From the NCBI GenBank assembly GCA_963831755.1, contig CAWHRC010000006.1, positions 1,832 to 65,831 on the forward strand: a stretch of 64,000 bases of DNA, in the 5' to 3' direction. The stretch is from an uncultured Acidobacteriota bacterium (GTDB lineage: Bacteria > Acidobacteriota > Vicinamibacteria > Fen-336). Within the stretch, counting starts at the first letter, position 1. Each line of letters begins with the position of its first letter. Shown one piece after another: positions 1-16,188 of the stretch. The notes beneath the pieces were generated by a model. The model was not told the origin of the DNA, did not search any database, and was given only the letters and a program-made list of their open reading frames with translations. The position numbers and the translations under genes were made by a program.

Positions 1-351
1 TCGAATCCTCTCCACGATAATCGGGGTGTGTCGGCTGGCTGAACGTCGAAGGAACCGTGCGCTTACGTCGAACCTCTTCAGGTCCTCGAGGATGTGATCT
101 CCCGCTGCATCTTCGCCAAGTGTGGCTGCTGGATATGCCCGCCACCCCAAGTACGCTAGGACCGCGAGGACGTTGCCACACGTTCCACCTGCCCAGCAGC
201 GCGGACCCACTCCGGCCCGATCAGTCACGACGATGTCGAGTGCAATTAGCCCTGTGCCCAAGGCGACCGGTCGTCCTGTTGACAGGAACAGACTGTCGGC
301 GCGCGGGCGAAGGGACTGGACCGTGGGATGTCGCATCGAGTCATTCTTCAT
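1..351 (-). CDS. PfkB/ribokinase-like sugar kinase, N-terminal part only (gene runs off the window edge, so it is absent from the ORF track)
   Basis: Own reverse-complement translation from ATG 351..349: MKNDSMRHPTVQSLRPRADSLFLSTGRPVALGTGLIALDIVVTDRAGVGPRCWAGGTCGNVLAVLAYLGWRAYPAATLGEDAAGDHILEDLKRFDVSARFL... The stretch GLIALD...AGGTCGNVLAVLAYLG resembles the N-terminal PfkB signature (GG-x-x-N-x-A...LG). The ATG overlaps the TGA of the upstream gene (ATGA, 351..348). Confidence 0.5.
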   Translation of the reverse strand, partial: MKNDSMRHPTVQSLRPRADSLFLSTGRPVALGTGLIALDIVVTDRAGVGPRCWAGGTCGNVLAVLAYLGWRAYPAATLGEDAAGDHILEDLKRFDVSARFLRRSASRHTPIIVERIR

Positions 352-1445
352 GGAAGGTAGGGTTCTCCTGCGAGCCAGATCTCAGTGGGGCCGCGGCCCG
401 AACCGACTTCAAGCCTCCCTTGCCCATCGAGGAGGACTTGGTAAGTCCCCGCTTCGACATGGCAGACCGGCAACGAACGCTCGATCGCCGCTAGTAGCAT
501 GCCGAGGGACAAGGTCTTGCTCGAGAGAGGCGAAACAACAGTGGTGACTTTCCCGATTGACGGCACGGCACCAAGACGAGTGCGGTAATACTCCTCCACC
601 TCAAGTATCTTCCGGTACACATCGAAGGGGCTGCGCTCATCGCAAAGAAGGAGATTCTCGGGCGAGACCAAGAGTCCCTCGAACAAGAGCTCACCGTGCC
701 TAACGGCAATGTCGTCCACGCGTCGCAGCGAGACGGCGGGAAACGGGAGAATCGGGCAAATCTCGACACACGAGCCCTTGATCTTGTTGTGGAGCTTTTC
801 GAGGCGTACCGCTTCGCTCGTACCCACGAGCGGCAGCCAGACGAGCCTGTCGTCGCCCTGATGTCGAAACGTGTGGAGGTAGTCCGCCTGGCCATACTCG
901 CGCCCCGAAATGCGCGAATCCAAGATGGGATCCTCAACCACCGTGACGTGTAGATTTCGGAAGACGTCCTTCTCCACGAGCCGTAGGAGATAGGCCAGCA
1001 AGGGAAAGAAGACGCCCCGGGGCATGCCGCTGATATCGACCACGACGTCCGAATACTTGCGCAGGACTTCCGTTGCTTGAGTGCCCAATGCGGCCAATGT
1101 CTTCCTGCCGGCGACGTTGTGACCTTCAGGATCATGAGTCTCAACGTCATAAAGAGCCTCATGCCGGCAGCCAGTGATGGTCGGGAGTTCGTCGAGATTT
1201 GCCTTCGTTAGCCTCTCCATGACGACACCGGCCTCGCCCAGTGCCGGGGGCCCCTTAAGCTTCAGAGCGAGATAGCCGAGTCGTTCATCGAGGCCGAGGG
1301 CCGCCAGCGCCTTGAGCGCGAGGAGCGAGCGAGGGTCAAATCCTAGGCCGAGGACCATGAGGATGCGGACTCTGCTATCGCTTGCGCGGTCGGCCCAGAA
1401 GCCAGTGAAGTCCTCGGTGAGGTAGTAGTCCTTCCAGCGCGCCAT
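348..1445 (-). CDS. Hypothetical protein, Rossmann-like, family not recognised (possible ligand-binding/CARF-like fold)
   Basis: 365-aa ORF. Its ATG lies 5 nt after the stop of the upstream NTPase gene and its TGA overlaps the next ATG. It has strand-loop elements RILMVLGLGFDPRS and DVVVDISGMPRG. The latter fits the CARF-type [DN]-x-[ST]-x3-[RK] signature, by pattern only. Confidence 0.6.
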   Translation of the reverse strand: MARWKDYYLTEDFTGFWADRASDSRVRILMVLGLGFDPRSLLALKALAALGLDERLGYLALKLKGPPALGEAGVVMERLTKANLDELPTITGCRHEALYDVETHDPEGHNVAGRKTLAALGTQATEVLRKYSDVVVDISGMPRGVFFPLLAYLLRLVEKDVFRNLHVTVVEDPILDSRISGREYGQADYLHTFRHQGDDRLVWLPLVGTSEAVRLEKLHNKIKGSCVEICPILPFPAVSLRRVDDIAVRHGELLFEGLLVSPENLLLCDERSPFDVYRKILEVEEYYRTRLGAVPSIGKVTTVVSPLSSKTLSLGMLLAAIERSLPVCHVEAGTYQVLLDGQGRLEVGSGRGPTEIWLAGEPYLP

Positions 1446-1450
1446 CCCAG

Positions 1451-3406
1451 TTATCCTTCTCCCGACCAGAGAAGCGTGCCGGAAAGGGCGCTTCGGCGAG
1501 TCATATCGCGTGTCGGCACCGGCTCCTGCATCATCCTGACGAGTAGCTGAACGGGTAGGTGCTGCCAGCCACCGTAGTTCAGGGGAAGGCGGAACTTCAG
1601 ACAGAGCAGTCGGTTGAGATAGAAGACGATCTTTTCACTGCCGGCCTGGCCTTGTTTCGTTATGCGAATCGAGAGGACGTTCCCAGCGACAGCGCTCGTC
1701 AAGACCTCTCGAAAGACGAGGGCTTCAGGCCCTTTGTTCTGGCCTGACACGGCTTGCACTATCTCTTGGCGAGTCAGGCTGAACCCGTTCACTCCAGGCG
1801 CGATTGGAGCGTTGGGCCGATAGGTCACGTCCTCGCAGAATAGGCCCAGATTGTCCACGAACTGTCGGATCGAGGAACCACGGCGGTGCTTCTGCTCCAG
1901 AGCGCCGTAGTAGTCCTCGGCGGATCGCCTGAGAAGCGCCTCCTGTTCCTTGGCTGACATCGCCAGCTCGCGGTCCAGTTCGGCTCTATAGATCATGCGA
2001 TCGACAATTGCAGCAGCAGTCGATAGCAGCTGCTCCACATTGCCGCTTGCCACGCTCGTGAGCGCATCGAATCCGCTGTAGTACGGGAGTCGGAGCCGCC
2101 GACTCAGAAAGAGCGTCGCCGCTTCGGCTGTCTTCGCGTCGGCCGTCTCCGGAATCTCCATTTCTGGGAGGAGCGACGCCTGGCTGCGGTTCGCCTGCCT
2201 TTCCAGAAGAATCAGGGTCTTCTCGAAGTCTGCCAGTTGGGCGACGCTTGGCACAGTCTCGTGTGCACGCGCGCCCGCGGCGGTTAGCTTCTCCGCGAAG
2301 GTGTCGCCACTCCTAAGCTCGGATGAACGCTTGCGCATCCCCTCGAGGGCCTTGACCGCTAGCTCCGCCGCTACGGTTTCGTCAGGGGCTCGGAGTAGTT
2401 CCTTGAAGTCGCTTCCCGTTACCTGCTGGAGCGACTCCGTTGCCATGAGGCGCCGGTGCACAACGTTGGCCGAGAACTTCGCGAACACGCCCGCTCTCTC
2501 TTGAAAGATCTCATCCAGTGGTATCTCCCTATACTCCCGACCCTGCTCGGCTCCCTCAACTGAGATGAGTTCCTCAAGGCCAAAGACGTGTGTCCGTACG
2601 GCAAGCCAGCGCGGTATCGCCGTCCGCCGAATCAGTTCGTTCTTTAGGTGTTGCCGTTGATCAGGATAGAGTTCCTGAACATCGTCAAGCATGACGACCG
2701 GAATCAGCTCAGACAGCGCTGGAATCCTTTGGACCTGCAACGCCAAAAACGCGAGCGCGTAGACGCGCGCGTGGGGCTGTATCGAAGACGGGAGGGGATC
2801 GCCTGGAAAACTGTTGAGCAGCGTCCCGAAGTCTCGTTCAATCTGGGCACAAAGGTCCTCTAGTTGGTCGATCGTTCGGGATTCCCCAAACATGATCGGG
2901 GGGGCGTCTCCCGACGGGAGGGGTTCTAGGCGGCAGTCGGGTGGGAGCTGGACCGCCTCACTCGCTGCGAGGCGGCGAATCGCACGCAAGAAAGACATGA
3001 CAAGCCGCGTGTCGAGAAGCGCGTTGAAGAGGCGAAGCGTGCCCTCCTCAGGTGGGAGGTTCGCGATGTCTCGGAGGCTGCTATCACATTGGATGTAGAT
3101 TCCGATCGCCCTGGGCCCATGGTCGGTGAGGATTCCCAGCTCAGCGAGCCGGTCCACCAGGTCCTGGTCGCTCGGCTGGGATCTCCTAGCGTGGAGTGCG
3201 AGGAGAGTATCCGTCTCGAAAAGGCGCAGGAGACTCGACTTGCCGGACCCGGGACTCCCGCGAACGACTATCAGCTTTGGTACGAAGAGATCGTCGCGTT
3301 GGAGCTGGTCCAACAGCAGAGGGCAGTAGAGCTGGAGAAACTGAGAGGTCTCGATTATGGGCGCGTCTGCGGCGCGGATCTTGAACGCGTTGCGAACCCG
3401 CGGCAC
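1451..3406 (-). CDS. P-loop NTPase (AAA/STAND-like ATP-binding protein) with a long helical C-terminal region
   Basis: 651-aa ORF. Walker A is VVRGSPGSGKSSLL and Walker B-like is IPVVMLDDVQEL. The GTG start lies 2 nt after the stop of the upstream gene. Confidence 0.75.
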   Translation of the reverse strand: MPRVRNAFKIRAADAPIIETSQFLQLYCPLLLDQLQRDDLFVPKLIVVRGSPGSGKSSLLRLFETDTLLALHARRSQPSDQDLVDRLAELGILTDHGPRAIGIYIQCDSSLRDIANLPPEEGTLRLFNALLDTRLVMSFLRAIRRLAASEAVQLPPDCRLEPLPSGDAPPIMFGESRTIDQLEDLCAQIERDFGTLLNSFPGDPLPSSIQPHARVYALAFLALQVQRIPALSELIPVVMLDDVQELYPDQRQHLKNELIRRTAIPRWLAVRTHVFGLEELISVEGAEQGREYREIPLDEIFQERAGVFAKFSANVVHRRLMATESLQQVTGSDFKELLRAPDETVAAELAVKALEGMRKRSSELRSGDTFAEKLTAAGARAHETVPSVAQLADFEKTLILLERQANRSQASLLPEMEIPETADAKTAEAATLFLSRRLRLPYYSGFDALTSVASGNVEQLLSTAAAIVDRMIYRAELDRELAMSAKEQEALLRRSAEDYYGALEQKHRRGSSIRQFVDNLGLFCEDVTYRPNAPIAPGVNGFSLTRQEIVQAVSGQNKGPEALVFREVLTSAVAGNVLSIRITKQGQAGSEKIVFYLNRLLCLKFRLPLNYGGWQHLPVQLLVRMMQEPVPTRDMTRRSALSGTLLWSGEG

Positions 3407-3408
3407 CG

Positions 3409-4671
3409 CTACGCCCCCTCGCGGCCGTGGCGCTCATAGCGCACAAAGAGTGGATTGAAGTACTCCCTCCTGCGGGCCCACAGCACGTAGAGGGAGTTAT
3501 TGGGTGTGTTGTGGTGCAGCACGAGCGGCAGGCCGCATCTGTCGAAGCCAAACTTGACGCAGCCCGTGTGGTGATCCCCGAAGTCATCGGAGTAGTACTT
3601 CTCGCAGAGTGCACCGATGGGTGTGGCCGACGAGGTGACCTGAGTGTGGGAGCCCAAAACTGCGGCGGGCAGGATCTGCGTTCGCGCGAACGGCCCAGGG
3701 AGCCGAGGCAAGAGGGGTCGCAAGCGATTCAGAGCATGTTCCGTCGTGAGAAGCGGGCAGAAGAAGACGGCAGCAGTCGGGTCAAGAGCGTCCGCGAGGG
3801 CGCGGCCCGCCTTGCACAGCGCTCCCTTGAGAACGGTATCGGCCATCCTGCTCTTGTTCACGAGGGAGTTGACTGCAGCAATGTAGTCCTCATCGGTTCC
3901 CATTCGTAGCATGGATTCTTGGTCCGCGGCCGAAACGTCGCCTTCGTACAGAAGCTCGAGCTCGTGCGTCTCCTGGTGGTAGCGGAATCGCGACTGCCAG
4001 AGCTGGGGAATCGTCGGTGGAGTGGCGTGAGGACTCAATCCACCTACGACAACCTCACGGAGAAGGGTCCGGCCAGACCCCGTGAAGTCGTCAAGAAGAA
4101 AGAGACAGCGGAAGGCGGCAGCCGGAGCGCCGGAGGCCGCGCGAAGATCCTTGAGGATGTCCTTGACCTTCTCCGGCGAGGTCTCGTAGTAGGGAATCAC
4201 CTGCTCGTTGCTGATATCGAGATTGTGGCGACGGATGTAGTCGATCCTTGCTCCGTCGCTCATGCCAACGTAGAGGGATGCCCGAGCAACGGACTTGAAG
4301 TCGGCAGACTCATGAATGGCACGGACTCGATGGGGCGGGTGCCCGGAAGCAGCCGCCGCGATCTCGATCTGCCGCCTCCTGATCACGTCGTGGTACAGAA
4401 CGGCAGCGAGTTGTTGGAACTCCTGCCTCGAGATGAAGATCAAGTCACGCCGGACGAAGTCCAGAGCGGCTTGCCGTTCGCCCTCATCGAACTGCTGGAG
4501 CCAGAGGTAGAGATTCTCCAAGAACAGACGGCCTGGATGATACATCTCGTACTTGTTGTACTTGTAGTCGGCGAGGAATTGCAGCTCGCGAAAGAGGTTG
4601 GCGGCAGCCGCCTCGTCTGTGAGGCCAGGGAGCGTGGTCTGGAGAAGGCGAAGCGCGAGCTCCCTCTTCAA
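3409..4671 (-). CDS. Phosphoribosyltransferase-like (PRTase-fold) protein
   Basis: 420-aa ORF. A PRPP-loop-like motif CLFLLDDFTGSGRTLL sits mid-protein and the flanking regions are not recognised. The TTG start overlaps the upstream TGA (TTGA, 4671..4668). Confidence 0.55.
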   Translation of the reverse strand: MKRELALRLLQTTLPGLTDEAAAANLFRELQFLADYKYNKYEMYHPGRLFLENLYLWLQQFDEGERQAALDFVRRDLIFISRQEFQQLAAVLYHDVIRRRQIEIAAAASGHPPHRVRAIHESADFKSVARASLYVGMSDGARIDYIRRHNLDISNEQVIPYYETSPEKVKDILKDLRAASGAPAAAFRCLFLLDDFTGSGRTLLREVVVGGLSPHATPPTIPQLWQSRFRYHQETHELELLYEGDVSAADQESMLRMGTDEDYIAAVNSLVNKSRMADTVLKGALCKAGRALADALDPTAAVFFCPLLTTEHALNRLRPLLPRLPGPFARTQILPAAVLGSHTQVTSSATPIGALCEKYYSDDFGDHHTGCVKFGFDRCGLPLVLHHNTPNNSLYVLWARRREYFNPLFVRYERHGREGA

Positions 4672-6626
4672 GAGTGAAACCTCCTGGCTGACGTCGGCGA
4701 CAGAAGCCGTGGCACTGCAAGTCTGAAGGTGCCCTTGGAGATCTGAATGGCGTTAAGGTAGACGAGGGTTGCCTGAACGCCGCGGTACCCGGGCGGGGCC
4801 AGATTCCAGCAGGTGTTCGGATCGGCAGAGACCTCATCGACGCTCAACGAGAGCGGGGCCCTGAGCAGGTCGAAGTCATTCCCCGGCCACCGACCCTTGT
4901 CTCCAATGAGGAGCACTCGTGTGCCGTCTCGAAGGCCGCTCTCCAGTAGGGTGAGTAGCGAGCGTTTGGAAACTTGCCGCGTCACTAGATCCACGGAATG
5001 ACTGGACGTGATCGCTCGCAGGTCGTGGACCTGTGCCACCTCCTCTACAACGCGCCAAGTCAGATCTCTCCAGGCTGGCACCGTGGGTTGGACGGAGACT
5101 TGCGCCGACCTTGGCTCGCAAACGGCCGCTGCAGAGATCGCCGGGTGCCGTACTAGTAGGTCCGCGGCATAATCGAGAGATTCAGAACGTGGCAAAGAGG
5201 GGTTCGGATGGCCGTCCTCGCTGAGAGAGCCGATATCGGCTGCGTTGTAGTATCCGACATACACGTTCCTCCACAGCCGCTTGGGTAGTGCCTTCCTGAA
5301 GTCCTCCCTGACAGACCTTCCGCGACCGGTCGCCACCCCAACGGGAATGCCTGCCATCAGGAGGCGGCTCAGGTGGCCTACGACGTCCGGCCGAACACCG
5401 GTGAATCGATCCCGTTCGTCACACAAGGTGCCGTCGTAGTCGAGGACGATGGCGCCGAACACAGCTCGAGCGAGATCTGCGAGAAACCGCCGCTGAGCAT
5501 CCTGCCAAGGAGCGAGGTCTGTACGATCTGATAGTGCTTGAACGTCGCAGCCGAGTTTTCGTGCGATTGGGGCTGCGTCGGTTGAAGACAAAACCTTGAT
5601 CCGGGTCCGCGGAGTTCGGAGGCGATAGATCCGCCGCCCGAAGGCCGGGACTCCCGGTCGGCCCGGATCTATGCCGCGCACTTGCCCGGCAAACCCTACG
5701 AGATGGAGCACAGCAACGAGTCCCGCGACAGCGGCCGTGGACCCAGTGTGCGGCAGGCAGATTCGGACAACAGGAGTGGTGCGGGGAATGAGTGCCAGTG
5801 TCTTGTCGGCGAGGTCTTGTTCGTCAGAGGAGAACATTGCGACCACTGCCGTGGTCGAAGCGTGCTTGGCGAGCCAATGGTGTCGCCCGTGAGCGAAGTT
5901 TCGGAAGTCGGCAAGCTGAGTATTACCGAGTGCAGCCTCGGAGAACTTGGATTCCAGATCTACAGCAGCGGAGGATACGTTTGGTCCGTACAACATCACC
6001 AGGGTGTTCCGTTCCCAGAGAGCCTGGGACCTCGCGCGGAGCGCCCCTATTCCGTCACTACCGAAACCAGCGTAGGCAAGCAAGGCGTCGAACGAACGGG
6101 GAAGTTGCTCGCTCGAACCCGATACGGTGTTGTAGGCGCGCACCAGTAGAACGGCAAAGGCCAGAAGGGAATTCGTGGCCAGAAAGCCATCCTTGCCCCA
6201 CGGGGCTGCCAGTTCAACGAGGTCCACGAACCGGTACGACTGCGCGAGGCGAGAGAGAGAGCTTCGCTCCCGGAGGCAGAAGGCCGCGCACCGGCGTGGT
6301 TCTCTGCACGCGGCGCTCTCGAGCGCCGAGAGGATATCCGCGTTGGAACCACCGGCACTCAGGACCATCACGGCTAAAGAGCGGAGGTTGATGGGAGACG
6401 AGAGGAGCTCGAGCGGCGTAGTCGGCCGCGCCAGCTTGCCGGCATGGCGCTGATGGAGGAGGCACGCAAGGTGCGCGGCAGAGAACGAACCTCCGGACCC
6501 CACTGCGAGCAGGGGGAACGACGCACATGCAGAGACTGCTGCAGCCAGCGCGTCGATCGGCACCCCCAGCGCCCAGACATAGGTCTCGCTCAGTCGAGAC
6601 AGTTCACTGACGTAGGGTCTGCCCAT
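4668..6626 (-). CDS. SIS-SIS-HAD fusion protein (double sugar-isomerase/phosphosugar-binding domain plus HAD-IIB-like phosphatase)
   Basis: 652-aa ORF. SIS motifs are PLLAVGSGGSFSAAHL and VMVLSAGGSNADIL, with a second SIS-like half DLESKFSEAALGNTQLADFRNFAHGRHHW. C-terminal HAD motifs are DYDGTL (I), VGVATGRG (II) and LLIGDKGRWPGNDFDLL (IV). Confidence 0.7.
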   Translation of the reverse strand: MGRPYVSELSRLSETYVWALGVPIDALAAAVSACASFPLLAVGSGGSFSAAHLACLLHQRHAGKLARPTTPLELLSSPINLRSLAVMVLSAGGSNADILSALESAACREPRRCAAFCLRERSSLSRLAQSYRFVDLVELAAPWGKDGFLATNSLLAFAVLLVRAYNTVSGSSEQLPRSFDALLAYAGFGSDGIGALRARSQALWERNTLVMLYGPNVSSAAVDLESKFSEAALGNTQLADFRNFAHGRHHWLAKHASTTAVVAMFSSDEQDLADKTLALIPRTTPVVRICLPHTGSTAAVAGLVAVLHLVGFAGQVRGIDPGRPGVPAFGRRIYRLRTPRTRIKVLSSTDAAPIARKLGCDVQALSDRTDLAPWQDAQRRFLADLARAVFGAIVLDYDGTLCDERDRFTGVRPDVVGHLSRLLMAGIPVGVATGRGRSVREDFRKALPKRLWRNVYVGYYNAADIGSLSEDGHPNPSLPRSESLDYAADLLVRHPAISAAAVCEPRSAQVSVQPTVPAWRDLTWRVVEEVAQVHDLRAITSSHSVDLVTRQVSKRSLLTLLESGLRDGTRVLLIGDKGRWPGNDFDLLRAPLSLSVDEVSADPNTCWNLAPPGYRGVQATLVYLNAIQISKGTFRLAVPRLLSPTSARRFHS

Positions 6627-6671
6627 TTGCTCGATGACGTTGGCCGGCCCGCGACAGCCGCGGCGGACGCG

Positions 6672-6869
6672 CTAGGGGGGAGGAGGCCCATCCACTGCCG
6701 CTCCGCCGCTACGCACCCACTCGTCGACCTCCTCTTTCTTGAACTTCCAGAGCTTTCCGATTTTGTGCGCGGGGAGCCGTCGACGCTCGATCCATCGGTA
6801 CACGGACGCCTTCACGACGCCTAGGTACTCAGCGATCTCGTCGACTGACAACCATCGATCGGCGGCCAT
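6672..6869 (-). CDS. Excisionase/MerR-type helix-turn-helix DNA-binding protein
   Basis: Sequence is MAADRWLSVDEIAEYLGVVKASVYRWIERRRLPAHKIGKLWKFKKEEVDEWV, the classic excisionase-family HTH. I prefer the internal ATG at 6869 (GGAG just upstream) over the track start at 6980. It lies 45 nt upstream of the SIS-HAD gene on the same strand. Confidence 0.75.
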   Translation of the reverse strand: MAADRWLSVDEIAEYLGVVKASVYRWIERRRLPAHKIGKLWKFKKEEVDEWVRSGGAAVDGPPPP

Positions 6870-6924
6870 ATCTCCGGACCCCGCGTCGACATCCCACCTC
6901 GAGCGCGTCACAACAGTATGCCAG

Positions 6925-6950
6925 AGTATACTAGGAGTTAACAAAGTCAA
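6925..6950 (-). promoter_or_regulatory. Promoter-like elements upstream of the HTH gene (TTGACT-N14-TATACT on the minus strand) with an AGTATACT palindrome
   Basis: Minus-strand TTGACT is at 6950..6945 and TATACT at 6930..6925, in a locally AT-richer patch. The spacer is only 14 nt, so this is suboptimal. AGTATACT (6925..6932 on the plus strand) is self-complementary and a related CAGTATGC sits just beside it. Confidence 0.3.
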
Positions 6951-7274
6951 CTCTACACCGGCAGGGCCCTGGGGCCCCACGAGGTCCCCTCGTTACGAAC
7001 CTGAAGCACGTCAGCGCGACCTACGAGTCGCTGGATCTCCTCGCCAAGCGCTGCAGCCTGATATCCAGCGCTGGGTGTCCGGGGAGCCGGCTGCGCGGCA
7101 GCTGCTCAGGAGGGCGACGGACTCAGGCTAGGACCCACGCGACGTGCTCCGGAAGCTAGAGCAGGTCCTGAAGGAGGACGGGCGAGGGGAATGAGACCTT
7201 CGCGCGACCTCCAAGGCTCCTGGGGCCAGAGGCTGTGGACCGATAGGATGAGTTTGACGCGGCGGTGAACGACC

Positions 7275-7674
7275 TTGCCGCGGGGCGTCCAAGGCCGCAC
7301 GACCTTCTATACGGACGGGAAGCTCAAAGTCGAGATCAGGAGCGAGCTGTCCGACGAGGCCAATCACTCGATCGTCGCGCGTCGCAGCCTCCGCGACACG
7401 GTCGCTCACGAGTGCGGACACATCGGCTTCCACTGTCACCTGCGCGCGCTGAACGACGGGCCCAGGCTCCTCCCCGAAATACGCTCGCGAGCCATCGGTG
7501 CTTCGCCACACGCCGACGAGCGACAACCCTCAGGAACGGGCATCGGACTGGTGGGAGTATCAGGCAAACCGCGGAATGGCGGCGCTCCTCCTCCGGAAGG
7601 CGCCCTTCATGGAACACGCACGCCGGCGATCCAGGGCACGGAGCGATCTCAGGTTCAGTCGCAGCGCCCACTAT
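7275..7674 (+). pseudogene. ImmA/IrrE-family (COG2856-like) zinc metallopeptidase, frameshifted
   Basis: The HEXXH motif (VAHECGHIGFH) is in the frame of the ORF at 7275. The downstream family motif WEYQANRGMAALLL is in a different frame (from 7552, stop at 7674). At least one frameshift lies between them. A possible decayed HTH remnant lies upstream, around 6990-7130. Confidence 0.6.
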
Positions 7675-8157
7675 TAGGGAAAGACTACGGGTCTAACATC
7701 TCGCTGTCGTCGAGCCGCCACCTCGGCCCGGTGGCATCGTAGTTGTAGGACACGCGCCAGTTCCGGAAGTCGTCCTTGGTGAACCGGGCCTCCTCCACGA
7801 AGTCCACCGACGTCGCTGGCGCCTTCCGACGTCGGCTGGGAGCCCGAGCTGGAAGAGGTTCGTCAGCTTGATCTTCACGTTGCGCCCTTGACGCGGACGC
7901 GTACGGGCCAGTAGTGGCCGTCCCCGTTGTACCGCCCGCGCTCCTGGATTTGGACTGAGTCGACGACCGCCAGGTAGGTAGGGCCAGCCGTTGGCGGCGA
8001 GGGCGGCGATTTCCTGACCGCAGCGGTCACCTCTCCGTCGCTGGGCCCCGACTCCAGAAGGCGACACCCCAGGCCGCTCGTCAGCAAGAGTCCGCCTGCT
8101 ACCACTGCACGAGATTCGCCACGCGGACACGGTTCCTCCTCGGAGGCGTCCGTAGCC

Positions 8158-8857
8158 TCAGTCCGACGGGCTGCCACGCCTGCCTTGCGTCCTGCGGAGC
8201 GTCGTCCAGAACCCGAGCATCACCAGGCCGAGGCTCGCCGCTGCAACGCGCCACGGGCTCACCGACACGTTGACCCTCGGGGCGTGCCGACCCGCGGCGG
8301 CCACCAAGCGTGCCTGAGCCCGCTCCAGCGCGAGGACGACCCTCCGCACCGCTGGCCGCTCCGTCGGATCCGGCGCCAGCGCCTGCATCAGAACGCGCTC
8401 CAAGCCCGCGGTCCACCGCTGGCGCCAGCACACGAAGCGGCTTGGGCCGGTCCGCGAGTTGGAGCCTTCGGAGTGATGTGACGGACGCTCCTGGCGCCAC
8501 CTCGTAGGGGAGGCGGCCCCCCGCGAAGAGAGCGTAGAGCGTGGCGCCGAGCCCGTAGACGTCGTGGTGTGGGCCGACAGGCTCGCCCGCCAGCGCTTCC
8601 GGGGATGCGAACCGCGGCGTGCCGGTGATGCTGCCGGGAGGTGTCGACGCCGCCACCTCGGCCAGCCGCGCGATGCCAAAGTCGCTGACTTTGGCGGCTG
8701 GCCGTCCGGAGGTCGGAAGGAGCACGTTCGCCGGCTTGATGTCGCGGTGCAGCACGCCGTGGCGGTGCGCATGCCACACGCATCGGCTCACGGCCAGGGC
8801 GATCTCGTAGGCGCGGACCAGAGGGAGGCGTTCGCCGGCAGTGGCCAGCCGGTCCAG
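8158..8857 (-). pseudogene. Hanks-type Ser/Thr protein kinase, C-lobe plus C-terminal TM tail; N-terminus missing, one frameshift
   Basis: Sequence reads LDRLATAGERLPLVRAYEIALAVSRCVWHAHRHGVLHRDIKPANVLL...KVSDFGIARL...GTPRFASPE...DVYGLGATLYALFAG. It then changes frame near 8405-8412 to continue ERVLMQALAPDPTERPAVRRVVLALE...AAASLGLVMLGFW. No Gly-loop or VAIK region lies upstream on this strand. Confidence 0.8.
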
Positions 8858-8868
8858 CTCCTCCTGCA

Positions 8869-9017
8869 CCTGAGCTGCTGGAGCGAGTCCGGCAGGAGGT
8901 CCGCGCGGTACAGGCGCTCGCGACCCCTTACCTCGTCCACACCTACAGCCTCTTCGACCGCGGGACGATCGCCTGGTTCGAGATGGAGCTGGTGGATGGA
9001 CCGACGCATGAGCCGCC
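8869..9017 (+). pseudogene. Inverted fragment of the same or a related kinase (alpha-C helix to hinge)
   Basis: Plus-strand translation gives PELLERVRQEVRAVQALATPYLVHTYSLFDRGTIAWFEMELVDGPT(HEPP*), which is kinase subdomains III-V. It abuts the minus-strand C-lobe head to head at about 8868/8869. Un-inverting it would give ...MELVDGPT / LDRLATAGERLPL... Confidence 0.65.
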
Positions 9018-10954
9018 GTGAGTGGGTAGCCTGCCTCGGCGCGAGTCTGGGACTCCTGGCTGCCCACCGAGCTCCGGCCTGGCTTGCCTCGTCGAGTGGC
9101 TGGCCTGCTCTCGCGGCCGGCGAGCCTGCGACCGCGAACTACGTCACCTGGCTTCTCGTGCTTCCGCTGCCCGTCGTCGGCTCCATCCTCGCCTGCGGCC
9201 TGCTGACCTTCGCAGAGGTCCACGGCGTGGCCGGCCCGCAGCGGCGCCGGCGCCGACCGTTGCCGAGGTACCCGTTCGACTCCAGCACGACCCAGCTCGT
9301 CATCGGCGAGACTCACCTCCAGGACGGCTCGCGGTCGGAGCAGCCGGGCTGGCTCGTCCTGCCCGAGAAGGGCATGTACACGGGCATCCTCATCACCGGT
9401 GCCACCGGCTCCGCCAAGACCTCGGCGGCGCAGTACCCGTTCACAGCGCAGCTCATTCACCAGCACGCTCGAGACCCGGCCCGGAAGATGGGCGGACTCG
9501 TCATCGACGCCAAGGGCAACTACGCCGACTTCGCGCGCGAGCAGTGCGCCCTGGCCGGCCGGCTGGCCGACTACTACGAGGTCAGCCTCACGAGCGGCGT
9601 CCGCTGGAACATCATCGGCCGGCCGGACCTGAACGCGGCCGCCCTCGGCGGCCATATCGCGGACATGATCGAGAACGTCCAGGGGACCTCCCTGGCCGAC
9701 CCCTTCTGGCACCAGGAGGCGAAGGACCTGGCCTCTCAGGTGATCCGGGTTCTCCGGCTCGCCGAGGGGCGAGAGCCCACGATGGCCTCGCTCTACCGGG
9801 CAGCCACGTCCTACGAGGCCTTCGAGGAGTACGTGAAGCTGGCCGAGAAGCGCATCAACACCGCCGAGCAGCAGGAGGAGCTCGCCTCGATCAAGTTCTG
9901 GCTCGAGGCCAAGGCCGCGAAGCTGGACGCCAAGCTCAGGGCCTCCATCGCCGCCGGCCTGAATGGCGTGTGCTCCCTCTTCGACGATCCGAAGATCCGC
10001 GAGGTGTTCGCCCCGGACCCGCTTTGGGAGAACTTCAAGGGCTTCGACCGCCTCATCGAGGAAGGCCAGATCGTTGCCCTCCGCGTGCCGAAGTCCCAGC
10101 TCAAGACCGTTTCGACGATCGTCGGGACAATGACCAAGCTGAACTTCTTCGACGCGGTCCTCAACCGCCTGGCCCGAGCCGAGCACGCCTTCGGCGACGT
10201 CGGCCGCGGCGTCTTCTTCGTCGCGGACGAGTACGACGGGTACACCACGCAGCCCGGCGACGGAGACTTCTTCTCCAAGTGCCGTGAGGCTCAATGCTGT
10301 GCGGTGATCGCGACGCAGACCTACGAGAGCTTCGTGGCGAAGCTCAAGAACGAGCATGTGGCGGCGCAGCTCATCGCCAACCTCCGGACGAAGATCTGGC
10401 TCTGCGCCGAAGACAACTACACCGCGAGGCAGGCAGCAGACCTTTGTGGCGAAATCGAGCGGAAGAAAGTCAGTCGCTCCCGGAACGAGAGTGCACGGCA
10501 CTCGTCGTTCTCGTTCCTCGACGGCGACGTGATCGCCGCGGACCCAGGCTCCGTGGGCGAGGGCATCACGATCAGCCTTCGGCGAGAGCATCTCTTCACG
10601 CCCCGGGCCTTCACCAGCCTCAAGGTCAACCAGGCCATCGTCAAACTGTTCGACGGCGTGCGCGTCCTCGAGCCCTGGGTCGTCTACCTCAAGCCCATGC
10701 ACGAGAACCCGGAGGTGTCGTGGTTCGACACCACGGGACGCGCGCCGGAGGAGCCCGCCTCCGAACGGCCGTGCTCCCAGCTCAGGGCGTTGCGCGTCTT
10801 GACGCCCCTCCTCACGAGAGGCCTGAGGCTCTTGCGACTCCGGCCCTGGGCCTCGGTGCGTCCGTCTGCGGCGAGCCCACAGTCGCAGACTCCCCCCGCA
10901 GCACAGGAGACGGGCCAGACCAACCAGGACGGAATCCAAGCCTCTCACCCCTGA
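8996..10954 (+). CDS. Type IV coupling protein (TraD/TraG/VirD4-like conjugative ATPase)
   Basis: N-terminal TM helices (YVTWLLVLPLPVVGSILACGLLTF), Walker A ITGATGSAKTS, VIDAKGNY, Walker B FFVADEYD, and AVIATQTYESF. The start is taken at MDRRMSRREW (8996; alternative 9008) inside the 796-aa track ORF. Confidence 0.8.
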   Translation: MDRRMSRREWVACLGASLGLLAAHRAPAWLASSSGWPALAAGEPATANYVTWLLVLPLPVVGSILACGLLTFAEVHGVAGPQRRRRRPLPRYPFDSSTTQLVIGETHLQDGSRSEQPGWLVLPEKGMYTGILITGATGSAKTSAAQYPFTAQLIHQHARDPARKMGGLVIDAKGNYADFAREQCALAGRLADYYEVSLTSGVRWNIIGRPDLNAAALGGHIADMIENVQGTSLADPFWHQEAKDLASQVIRVLRLAEGREPTMASLYRAATSYEAFEEYVKLAEKRINTAEQQEELASIKFWLEAKAAKLDAKLRASIAAGLNGVCSLFDDPKIREVFAPDPLWENFKGFDRLIEEGQIVALRVPKSQLKTVSTIVGTMTKLNFFDAVLNRLARAEHAFGDVGRGVFFVADEYDGYTTQPGDGDFFSKCREAQCCAVIATQTYESFVAKLKNEHVAAQLIANLRTKIWLCAEDNYTARQAADLCGEIERKKVSRSRNESARHSSFSFLDGDVIAADPGSVGEGITISLRREHLFTPRAFTSLKVNQAIVKLFDGVRVLEPWVVYLKPMHENPEVSWFDTTGRAPEEPASERPCSQLRALRVLTPLLTRGLRLLRLRPWASVRPSAASPQSQTPPAAQETGQTNQDGIQASHP

Positions 10955-11208
10955 GAGGCGGTTCGCCGAGCGAGGCCCAGCGTGGTTCGCCTTGCCCGCC
11001 CCGCGGCGGCCGGCACCGCTTCCGTCTCCCACGGGAGTCCCGGAGCCCGCGACTTCATCCAGGCCTCGACGTTGTCTAGCACGAAGCCGCAGTTGCGTTC
11101 GGTGATGCGCACCGGCCGCGGGAACGCCCCGGCCTGGACCATCCGCCATAGCGTCGTTCGGGAAACGCCGATCATCTCGAGCACCTGCCGAGGTCTTATG
11201 AACTGCAC
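10945..11208 (-). CDS. AlpA-family phage/ICE transcriptional regulator (HTH)
   Basis: Sequence is MQFIRPRQVLEMIGVSRTTLWRMVQAGAFPRPVRITERNCGFVLDNVEAWM, a typical AlpA/Phage_AlpA pattern. It is convergent with the T4CP gene and overlaps it by 10 nt. Confidence 0.8.
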   Translation of the reverse strand: MQFIRPRQVLEMIGVSRTTLWRMVQAGAFPRPVRITERNCGFVLDNVEAWMKSRAPGLPWETEAVPAAAGRARRTTLGLARRTASQG

Positions 11209-11586
11209 CGTCCACCTCCGATTCGCTGCCCACGGCCACTAGGCCACACACGGTGCAAGTCGGAGACCACGACGCCAGACGATCAGTCGCGTCGTAAGTC
11301 CTTGTCCTTCAGCAGCCCACCTTCACGCGGCTGTCTCGCAAGTGAGAAGAGAGTCCACGGCGATTTCAGCCGAGAGATGACGGCGGAAGTCGTTCGTCGG
11401 ATGTCGTGCGAACTGCCGGCCTGCCCTGCTGGAACGCCCAGCACACTACGAACGAGGCTCGCTTTTCGCCTTGACTGAGGAGTCCAGATTCCCTTGTTCG
11501 GCGACGCGGTCCAACCCCCCGTGCCAATAATCCGTGAGACACCGAGCCGTCCGAGATTAGTGTAGGGGGCGGGGAGGCTGAGATGG

Positions 11587-12063
11587 ATGGATCGAGAGGC
11601 TGCTGGATCTGGTTCTGAGATGAAGCATGCGGCGGAAACGGAGGGAGCCCGTAGGGCGACCGGAGTTTCCGCCGACGCCGGCGGGGCCCCCGACCCCGAG
11701 GTGGTGGCGAAGCCGAAGCGTCGCCGCTTTACCGCCGAGTACCGGCTGAAGATCTTGAAGCAGGCGGACGCCTGCAAGGCGCCCGGCGAGCTGGGCGCTC
11801 TGCTGCGGCGTGAGGGTCTGTACTCGTCGCTGCTGTCGACCTGGCGCCGCCAGCGGGAGCAAGGGGCCCTGGCCGCGCTGCGAGGGCGCAAGCGCGGCCC
11901 GAAGCCCAAGGCCGTAGATCCGCGAGTGAAGGAGCAGGAGAAGCAGATCGCGCGCCTGCAGCGGAAGCTGAAGCAGGCCGAGATGATCATCGAAGTCCAA
12001 AAAAAAGTGCACGAGATCCTGGGGATCCCCCTGAGAACCCTCGCCGACGAAGAGGACGACTGA
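11587..12063 (+). CDS. IS3-family transposase OrfA (HTH/leucine-zipper part)
   Basis: Sequence is RRRFTAEYRLKILKQADACKAPGELGALLRREGLYSSLLSTWRRQREQGAL...EKQIARLQRKLKQAEMIIEVQKK. The stop overlaps the orfB ATG (TGATG). Confidence 0.85.
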   Translation: MDREAAGSGSEMKHAAETEGARRATGVSADAGGAPDPEVVAKPKRRRFTAEYRLKILKQADACKAPGELGALLRREGLYSSLLSTWRRQREQGALAALRGRKRGPKPKAVDPRVKEQEKQIARLQRKLKQAEMIIEVQKKVHEILGIPLRTLADEEDD

Positions 12064-13190
12064 TGTCGGCGATCGCCGAGGTCGGTGCCGAAGTCCCAAC
12101 CGCCCCGCTGTGCGAGAGCCTGGGCGTCTCACGGGCCGCACTCTACCGCTGGCGTCAGCCGAAGCTCGACATCGAACCCAAGCCGGCGCGGGCGAGGCAT
12201 CCCCGCTCGCTTGGACCGGACGAGCGCCAAGCGATCCTCGATACGCTGAACTCCGAGCGCTTCTGCGATGCCTCCCCAGCCGAGGTCCACGCCACCCTGC
12301 TCGAGGAAGAGACCTACCTCGGCTCGCCGAGGACGATGTACCGAGTGCTGGCCGAGGCACACGAGGTCCGCGAACGGCGCGACCAGCTGCGGCATCCGCC
12401 CTACGCCAAGCCCGAGCTCCTGGCCACCCAGCCGAACCAGGTCTGGTCCTGGGACATCACCAAGCTCAAGGGCCCGGTCAAGTGGACGTACTTCTACCTG
12501 TTCGTCATCCTCGACATCTTCAGCCGCTACGTGGTCGGCTGGATGGTCGCCCACGGCGAGGGCGCCCGGCTGGCCGAACGGCTGATCGAGGAGACCTGCA
12601 CCAAGCAGAACATCTCGCCGGGCCAGCTCACCATCCACGCCGATCGCGGACCGGCCATGACCAGCAAGACCGTCGCGCTGCTCTTCTCGGACCTCGACAT
12701 CCTGCGTAGCCACTCGAGGCCCTACGTCAGCGACGACAATCCCTTCTCGGAGTCCCACTTCAGGACCCTCAAGTACCGGCCCGACTTCCCTGATCGTTTC
12801 GGCTCGGTCGAGCACGCGCGTCAGGCATGCCGCCCGCTGTTCGCCTGGTACAACGCCGAGCATCACCACAGCGCTCTGGCCTTCCTCACGCCGGCCACCG
12901 TGCACCACGGCCGCGCCGACGAGGCCCTCGATGCTCGTCACCGCGTCCGCCTCGCCGCCTACGCCGCCCACCCCGAGCGCTTCGTCAACGGGCCGCCGCG
13001 GCGCCAGAACCTACCGAACGCTGTTTGGATCAACCCACCCGAGGAAACGACGCACCAGGATGCCCCAGGATCAACGCAGCGAAATCCGGACGACCCTGAG
13101 GTCGTCCCCGTTTGCCGCACTTACGTGCCGTACCGTCGACCGCAGGCGGGCCAGCTCGACTCCGTCAGCATCGTGCAGCCCGCTCACTAA
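12063..13190 (+). CDS. IS3-family transposase OrfB (DDE integrase core, rve)
   Basis: Sequence is WSWDITKLKGPVKWTYFYLFVILDIFSRYVVGW...IHADRGPAMTSK...SHSRPYVSDDNPFSESHFRTLKY, the D, D, E catalytic-core pattern. Confidence 0.9.
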   Translation: MSAIAEVGAEVPTAPLCESLGVSRAALYRWRQPKLDIEPKPARARHPRSLGPDERQAILDTLNSERFCDASPAEVHATLLEEETYLGSPRTMYRVLAEAHEVRERRDQLRHPPYAKPELLATQPNQVWSWDITKLKGPVKWTYFYLFVILDIFSRYVVGWMVAHGEGARLAERLIEETCTKQNISPGQLTIHADRGPAMTSKTVALLFSDLDILRSHSRPYVSDDNPFSESHFRTLKYRPDFPDRFGSVEHARQACRPLFAWYNAEHHHSALAFLTPATVHHGRADEALDARHRVRLAAYAAHPERFVNGPPRRQNLPNAVWINPPEETTHQDAPGSTQRNPDDPEVVPVCRTYVPYRRPQAGQLDSVSIVQPAH

Positions 13191-13397
13191 ATGCAGAACC
13201 CGGCTGTCTCACGGAGATTGACACGGCCCGGGCCGCCTCGGCCCGTCTCTCCCGCGCGCTCCAGGTCTCCCAGTGCGCCATATCGCCGAGGCTGTACCCT
13301 GGCAGGAACGACCGACCGCCCCTCTGCCTCGATTCGTAGGTCAGGCCCCAGGAGCGCCGGCAGGCAACGGGTCCGGCGGCAGGCGACGGCCACCCAC

Positions 13398-14093
13398 GAG
13401 CGGGCGGGGCCGGAGGCGTTTCTGACGCCCTTCCGGGGCTACCTGCAGGCCGACGCCTACAAGGGCTACGATGCGCTGTACTCGAGCGGGCGCATCGTCG
13501 AGGTCGCGTGCTGGGCGCACGGCCGGCGCCGCTTCAAGGAGGCGCTCGATACCGAGCCGCGGGCCGCCGAGGTGCTGCTTCTGGTCCAGCAGCTCTACGC
13601 GATCGAGGATGAGGCGAAGGAGCTTTCGCCGCAGGCTCGCCTGAGGCTGCGGCAGGGGCGGTCGGTCCCGGTGCTCGCAAAGATCGACGAGGTGCGGCGC
13701 AGGCTCCAGGCGGACGTGCTGCCGAAGTCGCCGCTGGGTGATGCGCTGCGCTATCTCGACAATCAGTGGGCGCCGCTGCAGCGCTTTGTCGAGGACGGCC
13801 GTCTGGCCATCGACAACAACCGCGCGGAGAATCAGCTGCGCATCGTGGCGGTGGGTCGGAAGAACTGGCTCTTCGCGGGCAGCCTCGAGGGGGCACGCTG
13901 GGCAGCGATCCTCTACTCGCTCATCCAGGGCTGCCGCCTCGTCGGCGTCGACCCGTTCCTCTACTTCCGAGACGTCCTGCGGCGGCTCCCGACGCACCCG
14001 CAGAGGCTCATCGGCCAGCTCACGTCGCGCGGCTGGGCCGAGACCTTCGCCACCGCCGCCCTTCACGCCAAGTCCGGCGCCGCGAATCCGTAG
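13398..14093 (+). pseudogene. IS66-family transposase, C-terminal remnant (5' part missing or degraded, adjacent to the IS3 element)
   Basis: Sequence is FLTPFRGYLQADAYKGYDALY...VACWAHGRRRF...LAIDNNRAENQLRIVAVGRKNWLFAGS...DPFLYFRDVLRRL. Only about the last 230 aa of a normally about 500-aa protein are recognisable. Upstream sequence to 13224 is uninterpretable. Confidence 0.8.
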
Positions 14094-14109
14094 TTCACCG
14101 GACGCTTAC
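14094..14109. repeat. Probable right terminal inverted repeat of the IS66-family remnant
   Basis: TTCACCGGACGCTTAC reads inward as GTAAGCGTCCGGTGAA. From memory, GTAAGCG is the usual IS66-family terminus. It lies directly after the transposase stop. Confidence 0.5.
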
Positions 14110-14147
14110 GGCGCAGCCGAGTAGGCGCTATCGCACCACTCGCGAGA

Positions 14148-14678
<531 letters not shown>

Positions 14679-14792
14679 ACCACTTCCTTTCCTCAGGCGG
14701 CACATCCGCGCGGTTCTGATTGCGTCATGCAGTCGGTTGTCTACCACGCGCCAGGACACCAGCTAGCGTGCCTCGGGCGGCGAGGCAGCAGA

Positions 14793-15140
14793 TCACGCCG
14801 AGACGCTGAGCGACGCCAGGCGCTCGAGAGTATCCGGGTACTTGCGCACGAGCCAGATCAACGCCGCCGCCTGCTCGTTGGGTTTGCTGCGGCCCTGCTC
14901 CCAGCGTTCGAGGGTTCGTGGGTTCACGCCGAGCTTGAAGGCAAACACCTGGCGGGACATGTAGAGCGACTCGCGCGTCTCGCGAACGACGCGAGGTTCG
15001 AGTTCCGGCAGCGAGATCGGCTCGACGTGGTGCGTGCGCAGCGTCAGCCGGCTTTCGCGGTGCTCCCGCATCGCGCCGACACCGGCCATGAGTTCACGGA
15101 AGAGGCTGCCCTTGCCCGCCGGCTTCTTCGTCTTCGGCAT
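14793..15140 (-). CDS. XRE-family HTH protein of the COG2944/YiaG antitoxin type
   Basis: Sequence is LFRELMAGVGAMREHRESR...VRETRESLYMSRQVFAFKLGVNPRTLERWEQGRSKPNEQAAALIWL. No intact partner toxin gene lies upstream. Confidence 0.6.
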   Translation of the reverse strand: MPKTKKPAGKGSLFRELMAGVGAMREHRESRLTLRTHHVEPISLPELEPRVVRETRESLYMSRQVFAFKLGVNPRTLERWEQGRSKPNEQAAALIWLVRKYPDTLERLASLSVSA

Positions 15141-15456
15141 CGCTCTACTTCCTCCGCGGAACCGGGCGTGGTTTGGCCTCCACGCTCAAGCCATCGTACG
15201 CAACTTGCGTATGGTCGTCAAAAACATGGGCATGGGAGCCCTCCTGCGAATCAGGCCGGGATGCGCTCACGCTCGCGAGCGGCAGCCGCCACGCGCCGGC
15301 GGACGGCGACCTTGTGCGCTTCCGCGTGGGGGCCGGGCTTCATGTTCTGCTGCATGGCCTCCTCGGACTCCTTCTTGCCGTCCACGGCCGGGCGGGTGTG
15401 AGGTTTGAGCTTCCCCTTGGGACTGGAGGGCAGGGGTGAGGGCCTGCTCGTGGGAC

Positions 15457-16185: not shown

Positions 16186-16188
16186 TCC

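Follow-up and report, generated by a model that had tools for sequence, protein, structure and literature searches.

A mobile five-gene cassette that joins CARF6, PRTase-CE and ORC/Cdc6-like proteins to sugar-phosphate enzymes, a candidate conflict system

Gene content, order, and conservation of the cassette

The DNA analyzed here, hereafter the window, is a 64,000-nt stretch of contig CAWHRC010000006.1 (positions 1,832 to 65,831 of the forward strand; GenBank assembly GCA_963831755.1) from an uncultured Acidobacteriota bacterium. Its left end carries a cassette of five minus-strand genes, which travel together as one translationally coupled unit. In the direction of reading, these encode a 652-amino-acid (aa) protein with two putative SIS domains and a HAD domain (SIS-SIS-HAD, or SISHAD in gene orders; 4668..6626), predicted to combine a GlmS/FrlB-like isomerase or deglycase with a HAD-IIB phosphatase of the Cof/PMM type; a 420-aa protein of the phosphoribosyltransferase (PRTase) fold (PRTase-CE, or PRT; 3409..4671; Pfam PF24390); a 651-aa ORC/Cdc6-like AAA+ ATPase (ORC; 1451..3406; Pfam PF24389); a 365-aa CARF6-clade protein (348..1445; PADLOC PDLC01910); and a PfkB sugar kinase (1..351), the first 117 codons of which form an open frame running off the window edge. 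Upstream on the same strand lies a gene for a 65-aa DNA-binding protein with an HTH_17 helix-turn-helix (HTH) domain of the excisionase/MAD1-like type (6672..6869), for which an alternative GTG start at 6980 would give 102 aa. From the HTH gene to the kinase gene, the coordinates of the open reading frames (ORFs) place successive junctions at 45 nt, a 4-nt overlap, 2 nt, 5 nt, and a 4-nt overlap. ORFs and spacings are identical to those in an earlier note, written from the sequence alone, which had described positions 1 to 6980 as a six-gene cassette.

The cassette and the HTH gene occupy a low-GC segment (1..7500), with a GC content of 0.60 to 0.64 compared with ~0.70. Over positions 1 to 6000, the value is 0.60 to 0.62 against ~0.70 in the remaining window, as the same note had remarked from spot counts. 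A Logan contig identical to the window (L001; L-numbers are labels of retrieved homologous loci) supplied the leftward extension of the sequence that the note had proposed. It continues past the kinase gene, which is complete at 384 aa (2098 to 3252 on L001), and the GC content is back to 0.71 ~400 to 750 bp beyond the kinase stop codon. A promoter/terminator scan gave no promoter-like site, and terminator-like sites were fewer than in shuffled sequence. An Rfam scan of positions 1 to 8500 at E values of up to 1 returned no family (no riboswitch and no retron RNA).

A scan of one genome per species identified 11 loci in Planctomycetota, Gemmatimonadota, Acidobacteriota, and Acidimicrobiia, and the order SISHAD-PRT-ORC-CARF6-PfkB was seen in all 8 that were intact. 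Using as an anchor a CARF6 subgroup ~25 to 30% identical to the window protein, 368 metagenomic relatives were obtained; for the best 80 of these 368, the same five genes were present on every contig of sufficient length. All five families were found in 58 of the 98 retrieved loci, the remainder being cut by contig ends save for three to four decayed copies. Recurrence of the families in one order at dozens of independent loci exceeds what coincidence would give. The hosts belong to Planctomycetota, Acidobacteriota, Gemmatimonadota, Actinomycetota, and Alphaproteobacteria, so that the co-occurrence in unrelated genomes, on which the earlier note had made its interpretation depend, is borne out. 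Across loci, a 4-nt overlap is the modal junction, and 81 to 94% of the junctions are ≤10 nt.

Departures from the common order were also observed. The SISHAD gene has been relocated to a position between CARF6 and PfkB in L065, L101 (Paenarthrobacter aurescens TC1 plasmid pTC2), and L105, and the PfkB gene is inverted and upstream in L069. The PRT-ORC-CARF6 genes remain contiguous in every rearranged layout. All five genes are still present in L065, L101, and L069, which argues for a functional rather than a merely historical linkage. L105, on Sinorhizobium meliloti pRRI128_5 (NZ_CP088118.1, 8002 to 20179), is a complete cassette of the variant order PRT-ORC-CARF6-SISHAD-PfkB. Beyond it come genes for a NADAR protein and an HTH protein and then PRT-ORC-CARF6 once more, this time as a trio whose PRTase is split into two ORFs. 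The trio behaves as a module, a possible hint that the pair of enzymes can be shared or lost.

The HTH gene was rejected as a sixth core gene. Its product matched Pfam HTH_17 (5.5e−19) and TIGR01764 (3.2e−19) and scored 79.8 bits with the NCBIfam MAD1 model, just short of the cut-off of 80. Only three independent loci have such a gene immediately before the cassette (the window, L002/L016, and L022/L023); elsewhere this place is taken by an integrase, an insertion sequence (IS) element, an HTH_3 gene, or nothing. Because the HTH gene adjoins the cassette in so few loci, the core is taken to be five genes with the HTH gene as an occasional companion, and the six-gene unit of the earlier note is reduced accordingly. 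Comparison of the flanks of the retrieved loci gave no recurring sixth gene, the flanks being different in almost every locus.

Two partial copies were inspected. The CARF6-PfkB pair of L006 (9995 to 12209) was considered as a minimal system and rejected, since it is what remains of a cassette at an island edge. The island (12538 to 17123) carries an AbiEii toxin gene, an HTH_17-like gene, a tyrosine integrase gene, and a tRNA-Ser gene, with carbohydrate genes on the other side. L009 (7957 to 8794), on a contig binned as a Klebsiella pneumoniae metagenome-assembled genome, is a short decayed fragment of CARF6 and the start of PfkB. Its CARF6 portion is 72% identical over residues 124 to 234, and the fragment is either a degraded copy or part of a mis-binned contig.

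Families and conserved residues of the encoded proteins

The 365-aa protein was matched over its full length by the PADLOC CARF6 model PDLC01910 (1.7e−74; residues 3 to 363 against positions 2 to 347 of the 348 in the profile) and by a second PADLOC CARF6 model at 1.7e−49; the Pfam CARF families gave no match. The AlphaFold2 (AF2) model of the protein (pLDDT, 86.6; pTM, 0.89) consists of two tandem Rossmann-like domains with no fused effector domain. In the first domain, the fourth strand (residues 133 to 137) is followed by D137-I-S139-G-M-P-R143, in which D137 and S139 are present in 96/96 sequences and R143 in 86/96, with K in 4 more. This agrees with the [DN]x[ST]xxx[RK] loop after the fourth strand by which CARF domains are reportedly defined (Makarova et al. 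in 2014 and 2020). Foldseek comparison of the model identified mainly tandem universal stress protein (USP)-like domains at low TM-scores, owing to the two-domain arrangement, and Csm6 bound to cyclic hexa-adenylate (cA6) was matched weakly (E value, 3e−4; TM, 0.33). A CARF6 profile run against PDB sequences returned nothing useful. On the strength of the full-length profile match and the loop motif in the model, the protein is assigned to the CARF6 clade of the CARF superfamily and is predicted to be a sensor of a small ligand. CARF6 membership and the signature motif strengthen the suggestion in the earlier note that this protein binds a ligand. The subfamily is rare and shows little variation in length (clustering at 90% identity gave 178 clusters, all ~365 aa), and the PRTase subfamily is of similar size and lies on the same contigs. 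A profile search for CARF6 among 1.84 billion representatives gave 676 related clusters, nearly all of them stand-alone proteins of 350 to 390 aa.

The 420-aa protein matched the Pfam PRTase-CE family PF24390 at 7.3e−18 (65.8 bits against a cut-off of 27) and the PADLOC retron-type model PRTase_III-A at 7e−14, the latter similarity lying in the phosphoribosyl pyrophosphate (PRPP) loop and a C-terminal motif. The PRPP-loop-like motif reads D194-D195-F-x-x-S199-G200-x-T202. Among 58 orthologs, position 194 is D in 50 and N in 7, D195 and S199 are each kept in 57, G200 is kept in 54, and position 202 is T or S in 56; at the C terminus, H-N-T-P-N-N...R411...R414-H is nearly invariant. Further features are a helical region at the N terminus and, at ~215 to 300 (window positions ~3770 to 4030), a variable insert, predicted to be partly helical, which may be an accessory or interaction module. 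In L005, L011, and L012, the insert is missing and the remainder of the protein is conserved. The AF2 model has a pLDDT of 72, and a profile of the family matched no chain among PDB sequences. The Pfam score, the acidic pair, and the S/T-G-x-T motif class the protein as a PRTase-CE, a family with the predicted activity of cleaving or transferring at the ribose-base bond of free nucleotides. The Pfam names used here probably stem from a computational survey of 2023; that of PRTase-CE reportedly goes back to Nicastro, Burroughs, Iyer, and Aravind (in NAR in 2023), whose abstract is said to speak of effectors 'downstream of novel enzymes generating signaling nucleotides'.

The 651-aa protein matched Pfam PF24389, ORC-CDC6-like, over residues 38 to 609 (4.7e−36; 125.1 bits against a cut-off of 27). 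Its Walker A residues (G53-x-G55-K56-S58) are kept in 66 of 67 orthologs, with a gap in the other, and the Walker B residues D241 and D242 in 67 and 64, respectively; W267, R271, R290, and R319 are invariant. Profile comparison with PDB sequences gave nothing useful. Judged by these features, the protein is an ORC-CDC6-like AAA+ ATPase with intact Walker A and B motifs.

As a single sequence, the 652-aa protein gave only weak HAD-IIB matches (TIGR00099, 5.8e−5; TIGR01484, 6.3e−4). A profile built from 11 orthologs matched the double-SIS structure 2aml (9.3e−5) and GlmS-type isomerases and glucosamine-6-phosphate deaminases (4e−3) in the PDB, together with HAD-IIB enzymes of the Cof/PMM type, including PMM2. 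The HAD motif residues D396-x-D398-x-T400, K554, D576, and N583-D584 are kept in 57/57 orthologs, and position 433 (T in the window) is T or S in all 57. In the putative SIS portion, E225, E230, H246, and R248 are likewise kept in 57/57, and G43, G45, and G46 in 56/57 (one gap); E225, E230, and H246 were equated with GlmS catalytic residues by eye only. Motifs I to IV together with the profile match place the protein in HAD subfamily IIB.

The PfkB fragment in the window is borderline (25.7 bits against a cut-off of 25.8), and full-length orthologs carry PF00294. A PfkB profile matched ribokinase, fructokinase, and ketohexokinase structures in the PDB (best, 1.8e−14). G55-G56 (the GG switch), N60, and D267-x-x-G270-x-G272-D273 (DxxGxGD) are kept in 82/82 orthologs, and a four-cysteine site (C132/C135/C365/C368) in 74 to 79 of 82. 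By profile, GG switch, and DxxGxGD motif, the protein is classed as a PfkB sugar kinase. In RefSeq, the end genes of the cassette are named 'HAD hydrolase' and 'fructokinase'. As read from these alignments, purifying selection acts on all of the catalytic and signature sites, and no catalytic motif has been lost from the four enzyme domains or from the ATPase.

Mobility and genomic neighbors

In 23 of 25 loci, the GC content of the cassette is below that of its flanks (median, −4.6 GC points), its own GC content ranging from 0.36 to 0.62. Nineteen plasmids in PLSDB carry the cassette, 9 of them conjugative; the cultured hosts of these plasmids belong to Rhizobium, Agrobacterium, Sinorhizobium, Bradyrhizobium, Sulfitobacter, Sphingomonas, Paenarthrobacter, and Rathayibacter. 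Copies are located, for example, at 21513 to 28686 of NZ_CP116695.1 (Agrobacterium tumefaciens pAtA74a_b), 278287 to 285358 of NZ_CP018081.1 (Sulfitobacter), and 265295 to 272444 of CP000476.1 (P. aurescens pTC2). Three independent copies adjoin conjugation genes: that of a Sulfitobacter plasmid (L104), which lies between genes for a relaxase and a type IV coupling protein (T4CP) and virB11; that of L018, which lies inside a conjugative element; and that of the window, with a T4CP gene at 8564 to 10954. This recurrent placement may mean that the cassette takes part in plasmid competition or guards the element while it is being transferred. At other loci, the neighbors are tyrosine integrases, transposases/IS elements, or tRNAs. 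In Agrobacterium tumefaciens pAtA74a_b (L102), a Tn7-like TniQ/TniB/transposase set was seen on one flank, and a DUF6602 gene, the small RNA Atu_At1, and, further out, a nucleoside 2-deoxyribosyltransferase gene were seen on the other. With its varied flanks, its presence on 19 plasmids, its proximity to integrase and conjugation genes, and its low GC content, the cassette is not a core-genome locus beside carbohydrate genes; had it been one, the interpretation in the earlier note would have been refuted.

Most copies lie on plasmids or genomic islands, and their flanks often hold genes with known or candidate defense roles: GajA and GajB of Gabija, JetC of Wadjet, type IIG restriction-modification enzymes, HEPN-DUF499/HmaC together with DUF1156, AbiEii, SIR2_2, a pair formed by a helicase and an MZB protein, and the PADLOC candidates PDC-S02 and PDC-M41B. 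Some loci lie among metabolic genes, as in L019 and on the left side of L006.

To the right of the cassette in the window, the T4CP gene is followed by an rve-family (IS3-like) transposase gene (12063 to 13190) and an IS66 transposase gene (13191 to 14093). The IS66 fragment, directly after the rve-family gene, matches the C-terminal part of the profile only, and the pair (12063 to 14093) suggests nested or truncated insertions. The T4CP, IS3-like, and IS66 genes agree with the mobile-element debris described in the earlier note. Its ImmA/IrrE pseudogene is less clear: the plus-strand ORF at 7275 to 7742 has an HExxH motif (HECGH), consistent with an ImmA/IrrE-like fragment, and gave no match in a Pfam scan at E values of up to 0.001. 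A minus-strand ORF (8099..11251) holds a Ser/Thr protein kinase core (HRDIKPANVLL...DFG...SPEAL) at 8100 to 8800, antisense to the T4CP ORF, whose start it overlaps; this has the look of a kinase gene that has been truncated beside the conjugation gene. Further right, at 19361 to 21754, is a LigD gene with ligase, primase-polymerase, and phosphoesterase domains all present.

Likeness to known systems and possible function

Anti-phage systems were sought with PADLOC-DB v2.0.0, in which no system covers the cassette; only single-protein matches were returned, to mad1 (the HTH protein), PRTase_III-A, and CARF6, and the SIS-HAD, ATPase, and kinase genes had no match at all. NCBIfam has no names for the cassette, and RefSeq labels the middle three genes 'hypothetical protein'. 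In the literature searched, neither a description of this gene combination nor a sign of experimental work on it was found; the prospect that the cassette has already been drawn in silico is roughly even. The earlier note had stated that the cassette matches no named system. Because three of its proteins belong to families that are already catalogued (CARF6, PRTase-CE, and ORC-CDC6-like), that statement holds for the cassette as a whole and not for its parts.

Among the six proteins (with Pfam, PADLOC, and NCBIfam) and the top neighbor families, no signal synthase (Cas10, CD-NTase, pyrimidine cyclase, or TIR) was identified. CBASS (cyclic oligonucleotide-based anti-phage signaling), Pycsar, Thoeris, and a type III accessory module were each rejected, as there is no synthase or cas gene, and a retron was rejected, there being no reverse transcriptase (RT) ORF in positions 1 to 7000 and no noncoding RNA (Rfam, 1 to 8500). 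The cassette is thus placed outside type III CRISPR, CBASS, Pycsar, Thoeris, and retrons because their defining synthase or RT is absent. An ADP-heptose pathway was also rejected, since the SIS and HAD subfamilies are the wrong ones and no nucleotidyltransferase is present.

By analogy, the cassette would work most like CARF-based signaling and like the recently described 'CE' systems that target the nucleotide pool. With type III CRISPR signaling by cyclic oligoadenylate (cOA), as read by Csm6, Csx1, and Can1/2, it shares a CARF sensor with the [DN]x[ST]xxx[RK] loop and a weak fold match to Csm6 and, presumably, the logic of a small molecule made within the locus and read by a CARF protein. 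Unlike those loci, it lacks Cas10 or any other cyclase; no cas genes or CRISPR arrays were seen in the locus annotations or top neighbor families, arrays not having been searched for specifically; and CARF6 is one chain in which two domains lie in tandem and to which no nuclease or other output domain is fused. Because its partner enzymes are of sugar-phosphate and PRPP types, the ligand of CARF6 is probably not a cOA. PRTase-CE systems and type III-A retrons have in common with the cassette a PRTase-CE protein, here scoring above the Pfam threshold and similar to PADLOC PRTase_III-A. In contrast to type III-A retrons, however, there is no RT or retron RNA, and the cassette PRTase differs from other PRTase-CE systems in its constant linkage to ORC-CDC6-like, CARF6, SIS-SIS-HAD, and PfkB genes and in its N-terminal helical region and variable insert.

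In ordinary metabolism, PfkB and SIS (and HAD) enzymes act sequentially on one phosphosugar in the FrlD/FrlB pathway, where a PfkB kinase with a double-SIS deglycase is the pattern of ketosamine catabolism, and in the GmhA/HldE/GmhB pathway to ADP-heptose. The superfamilies are the same, and the nearest solved relatives of the cassette enzymes are fructokinases and GlmS-type SIS proteins. Those pathways are core or catabolic, with transporters and regulators, whereas the cassette, carried on mobile elements, has such enzymes fused or coupled to PRTase-CE, AAA+ ATPase, and CARF proteins. The ATPase resembles the hubs of BrxC, DUF499/HmaC, and Avs-like systems in being a large ORC/Cdc6-type AAA+ protein with intact Walker motifs at the center of a multigene unit (PMC12839542). 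It differs from the BrxC and DUF499/HmaC hubs in belonging to PF24389 and in having no methyltransferase, PglZ, or nuclease partner.

Two described immune systems provide parallels in logic. In the anti-phage module PUA-Calcineurin-CE-HAD (bioRxiv, 2026), a domain that senses a nucleotide acts with a 'CE' enzyme and a HAD phosphatase to deplete deoxynucleoside triphosphates; the danger nucleotide sensed, m6-dAMP, comes from outside the system, and the HAD protein shares in the degradative work (PMC12871103). The cassette likewise combines a putative nucleotide-binding sensor, a 'CE' enzyme predicted to target nucleotides, and a HAD phosphatase. Its folds are CARF instead of PUA and PRTase instead of calcineurin, its proteins are separate, and it has in addition a sugar kinase, a putative double-SIS isomerase, and the AAA+ ATPase. 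In ShosTA, the toxin ShosT is a PRTase-domain protein whose toxicity needs PRPP binding, and this noncanonical PRTase-fold protein is a precedent for a PRTase as an immune effector (PMC12961424). The cassette differs in having no DprA-like antitoxin and a PRTase profile with no sequence match to any PDB chain.

Taking these parallels together with the genomic context, we give an even chance to the reading that the five genes form a self-contained conflict system that spreads by horizontal transfer, is most likely directed against phages and/or plasmids, and is wired in the following way. The PfkB kinase and the SIS-SIS-HAD protein would turn a sugar or sugar-amine into a phosphosugar- or nucleotide-like small molecule, with a possible contribution from the PRTase, and the pseudo-dimeric CARF6 protein would bind this molecule; as no cyclase is present, a product of the cassette enzymes is the most economical candidate for its ligand. 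The ORC/Cdc6-like ATPase could serve as an NTP-dependent switch or scaffold, perhaps also as a sensor of invader nucleic acid. PRTase-CE would be the output, attacking the nucleotide/PRPP pool at the ribose-base bond, and this attack would stop the invader, and possibly the cell as well, from replicating. Taken alone, this wiring is the weakest part of the proposal and is doubtful. That the cassette is a mobile conflict system of some kind, whether wired like this or with all of its enzymes at the output end as discussed below, is likely. Membership of CARF6, PRTase-CE, and ORC-CDC6-like proteins in families tied to conflict biology favors a conflict role, as do the fixed gene order, the coupled junctions, the conserved catalytic residues, the signs of mobility, and the defense genes nearby. 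The defense interpretation put forward in the earlier note is supported as well, in that the cassette is not a core locus, matches no named system as a whole, and consists of families that co-occur in unrelated genomes.

Several observations weigh against this proposal. The defense function is attributed from genomic context only, that is, through guilt by association; the defense genes around the cassette are occurrences at individual loci, many immediate neighbors are housekeeping genes (MoeA, PGK, and PdxA), and no phage record was found to contain the cassette. The cassette encodes neither a toxic effector of a classic kind (nuclease, pore, or NADase) nor a dedicated cyclase, and the lack of a cyclase makes the source of the CARF ligand speculative. 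The PRTase fold and the SIS assignment draw on profile matches and motifs: Foldseek of the PRTase model found no significant PDB fold match, with uracil phosphoribosyltransferase reached only at an E value of 0.2. The 652-aa protein as a single sequence has no Pfam SIS match, and a sugar kinase with a double-SIS protein is also the mark of ordinary ketosamine catabolism (FrlD/FrlB). The roles of the proteins could, moreover, be permuted, for example with the PRTase as a biosynthetic enzyme and the ATPase as the effector hub.

An unlikely alternative is that all four enzyme domains belong to the output. PRTase-CE would split nucleotides or PRPP; the phosphatase, isomerase, and kinase would remove ribose-phosphate or burn ATP in a kinase/phosphatase cycle, thereby blocking salvage of the pool; CARF6 would sense an infection-derived nucleotide made elsewhere; and the AAA+ protein would assemble the complex. 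PUA-Calcineurin-CE-HAD, with its external m6-dAMP signal and degradative HAD protein, is a precedent for such an arrangement (PMC12871103), the locus has no cyclase-like synthase, and all of the enzyme motifs are equally conserved. Against this, SIS proteins of the GlmS/FrlB type and fructokinase-like PfkB proteins are not known to act on ribose-5-phosphate, and it would be awkward for one degradative chain to contain both a kinase and a phosphatase unless the two form a futile cycle.

The ketosamine pattern raises a second alternative, that the cassette is an accessory operon by which a rare sugar, a ketosamine/Amadori product, or a nucleoside is broken down or salvaged, carried as mobile cargo with the CARF-like protein and the ATPase as regulators or chaperones. 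This fits the FrlD/FrlB-like pairing of PfkB with a double-SIS protein, the profile matches to fructokinases and GlmS-type isomerases in the PDB, the RefSeq labels of the two end genes, and the loci set among metabolic genes (L019 and the left side of L006). It is nevertheless quite improbable. Neither a transporter nor a dedicated transcription factor nor any other sixth gene accompanies the cassette consistently, and no known sugar catabolism makes use of a PRTase-CE, a CARF protein, or an ORC/Cdc6-like ATPase of 650 aa. Moreover, copies are scattered sporadically over five phyla on low-GC plasmids and islands, and defense genes are frequent neighbors. Very improbable is a third alternative, the biosynthesis of a nucleoside-like secondary metabolite (such as a toxic nucleoside analog used against competitors) or a nucleic acid modification (such as sugar or base modification of the DNA of the element itself) with the ORC-like ATPase acting on DNA, for although the combination of PRTase, kinase, phosphatase, and isomerase resembles nucleoside-antibiotic pathways and the Ter-associated modules for a 'nucleoside-like metabolite' (PMC7824862), ORC/Cdc6-type ATPases bind DNA in BREX-like systems (PMC12839542), and the cassette is repeatedly carried on conjugative elements, there is no conserved exporter, self-resistance gene, DNA glycosyl- or base-transferase, or restriction partner, and the CARF sensor would be left unexplained.

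Whatever its function, the cassette is a widespread, compact, and uncharacterized mobile five-gene unit with chemistry unusual for an immune system. It is self-contained within ~6.5 to 7 kb, its catalytic residues are invariant and easily mutated, and copies on conjugative plasmids occur in tractable cultured hosts, among them Agrobacterium tumefaciens, Sinorhizobium meliloti, Rhizobium leguminosarum, and Paenarthrobacter aurescens TC1. Its repeated proximity to genes for relaxases, T4CPs, and type IV secretion systems suggests a possible part in plasmid-plasmid or plasmid-phage competition. The known routes to an immune signal run through Cas10, CD-NTase-type cyclases, and TIR enzymes. If the cassette is a defense system, it would represent a fourth route to an immune signal or to attack on the nucleotide pool, by way of sugar-phosphate and PRPP enzymes, and would give the CARF6 clade its first function, probably with a non-cOA ligand. 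More specifically, and at present rather a long shot, the cassette would make a new noncyclic second messenger, derived from PRPP or a phosphosugar, which would be read by the pseudo-dimeric CARF protein and coupled by the ORC/Cdc6-like ATPase to an effector of the nucleotide pool. Were this so, it would be immune signaling with neither a nucleotide cyclase nor a TIR enzyme, the messenger arising through the action of a kinase, an isomerase of the GlmS/Amadori type, and a phosphatase, in which the PRTase itself may take part.

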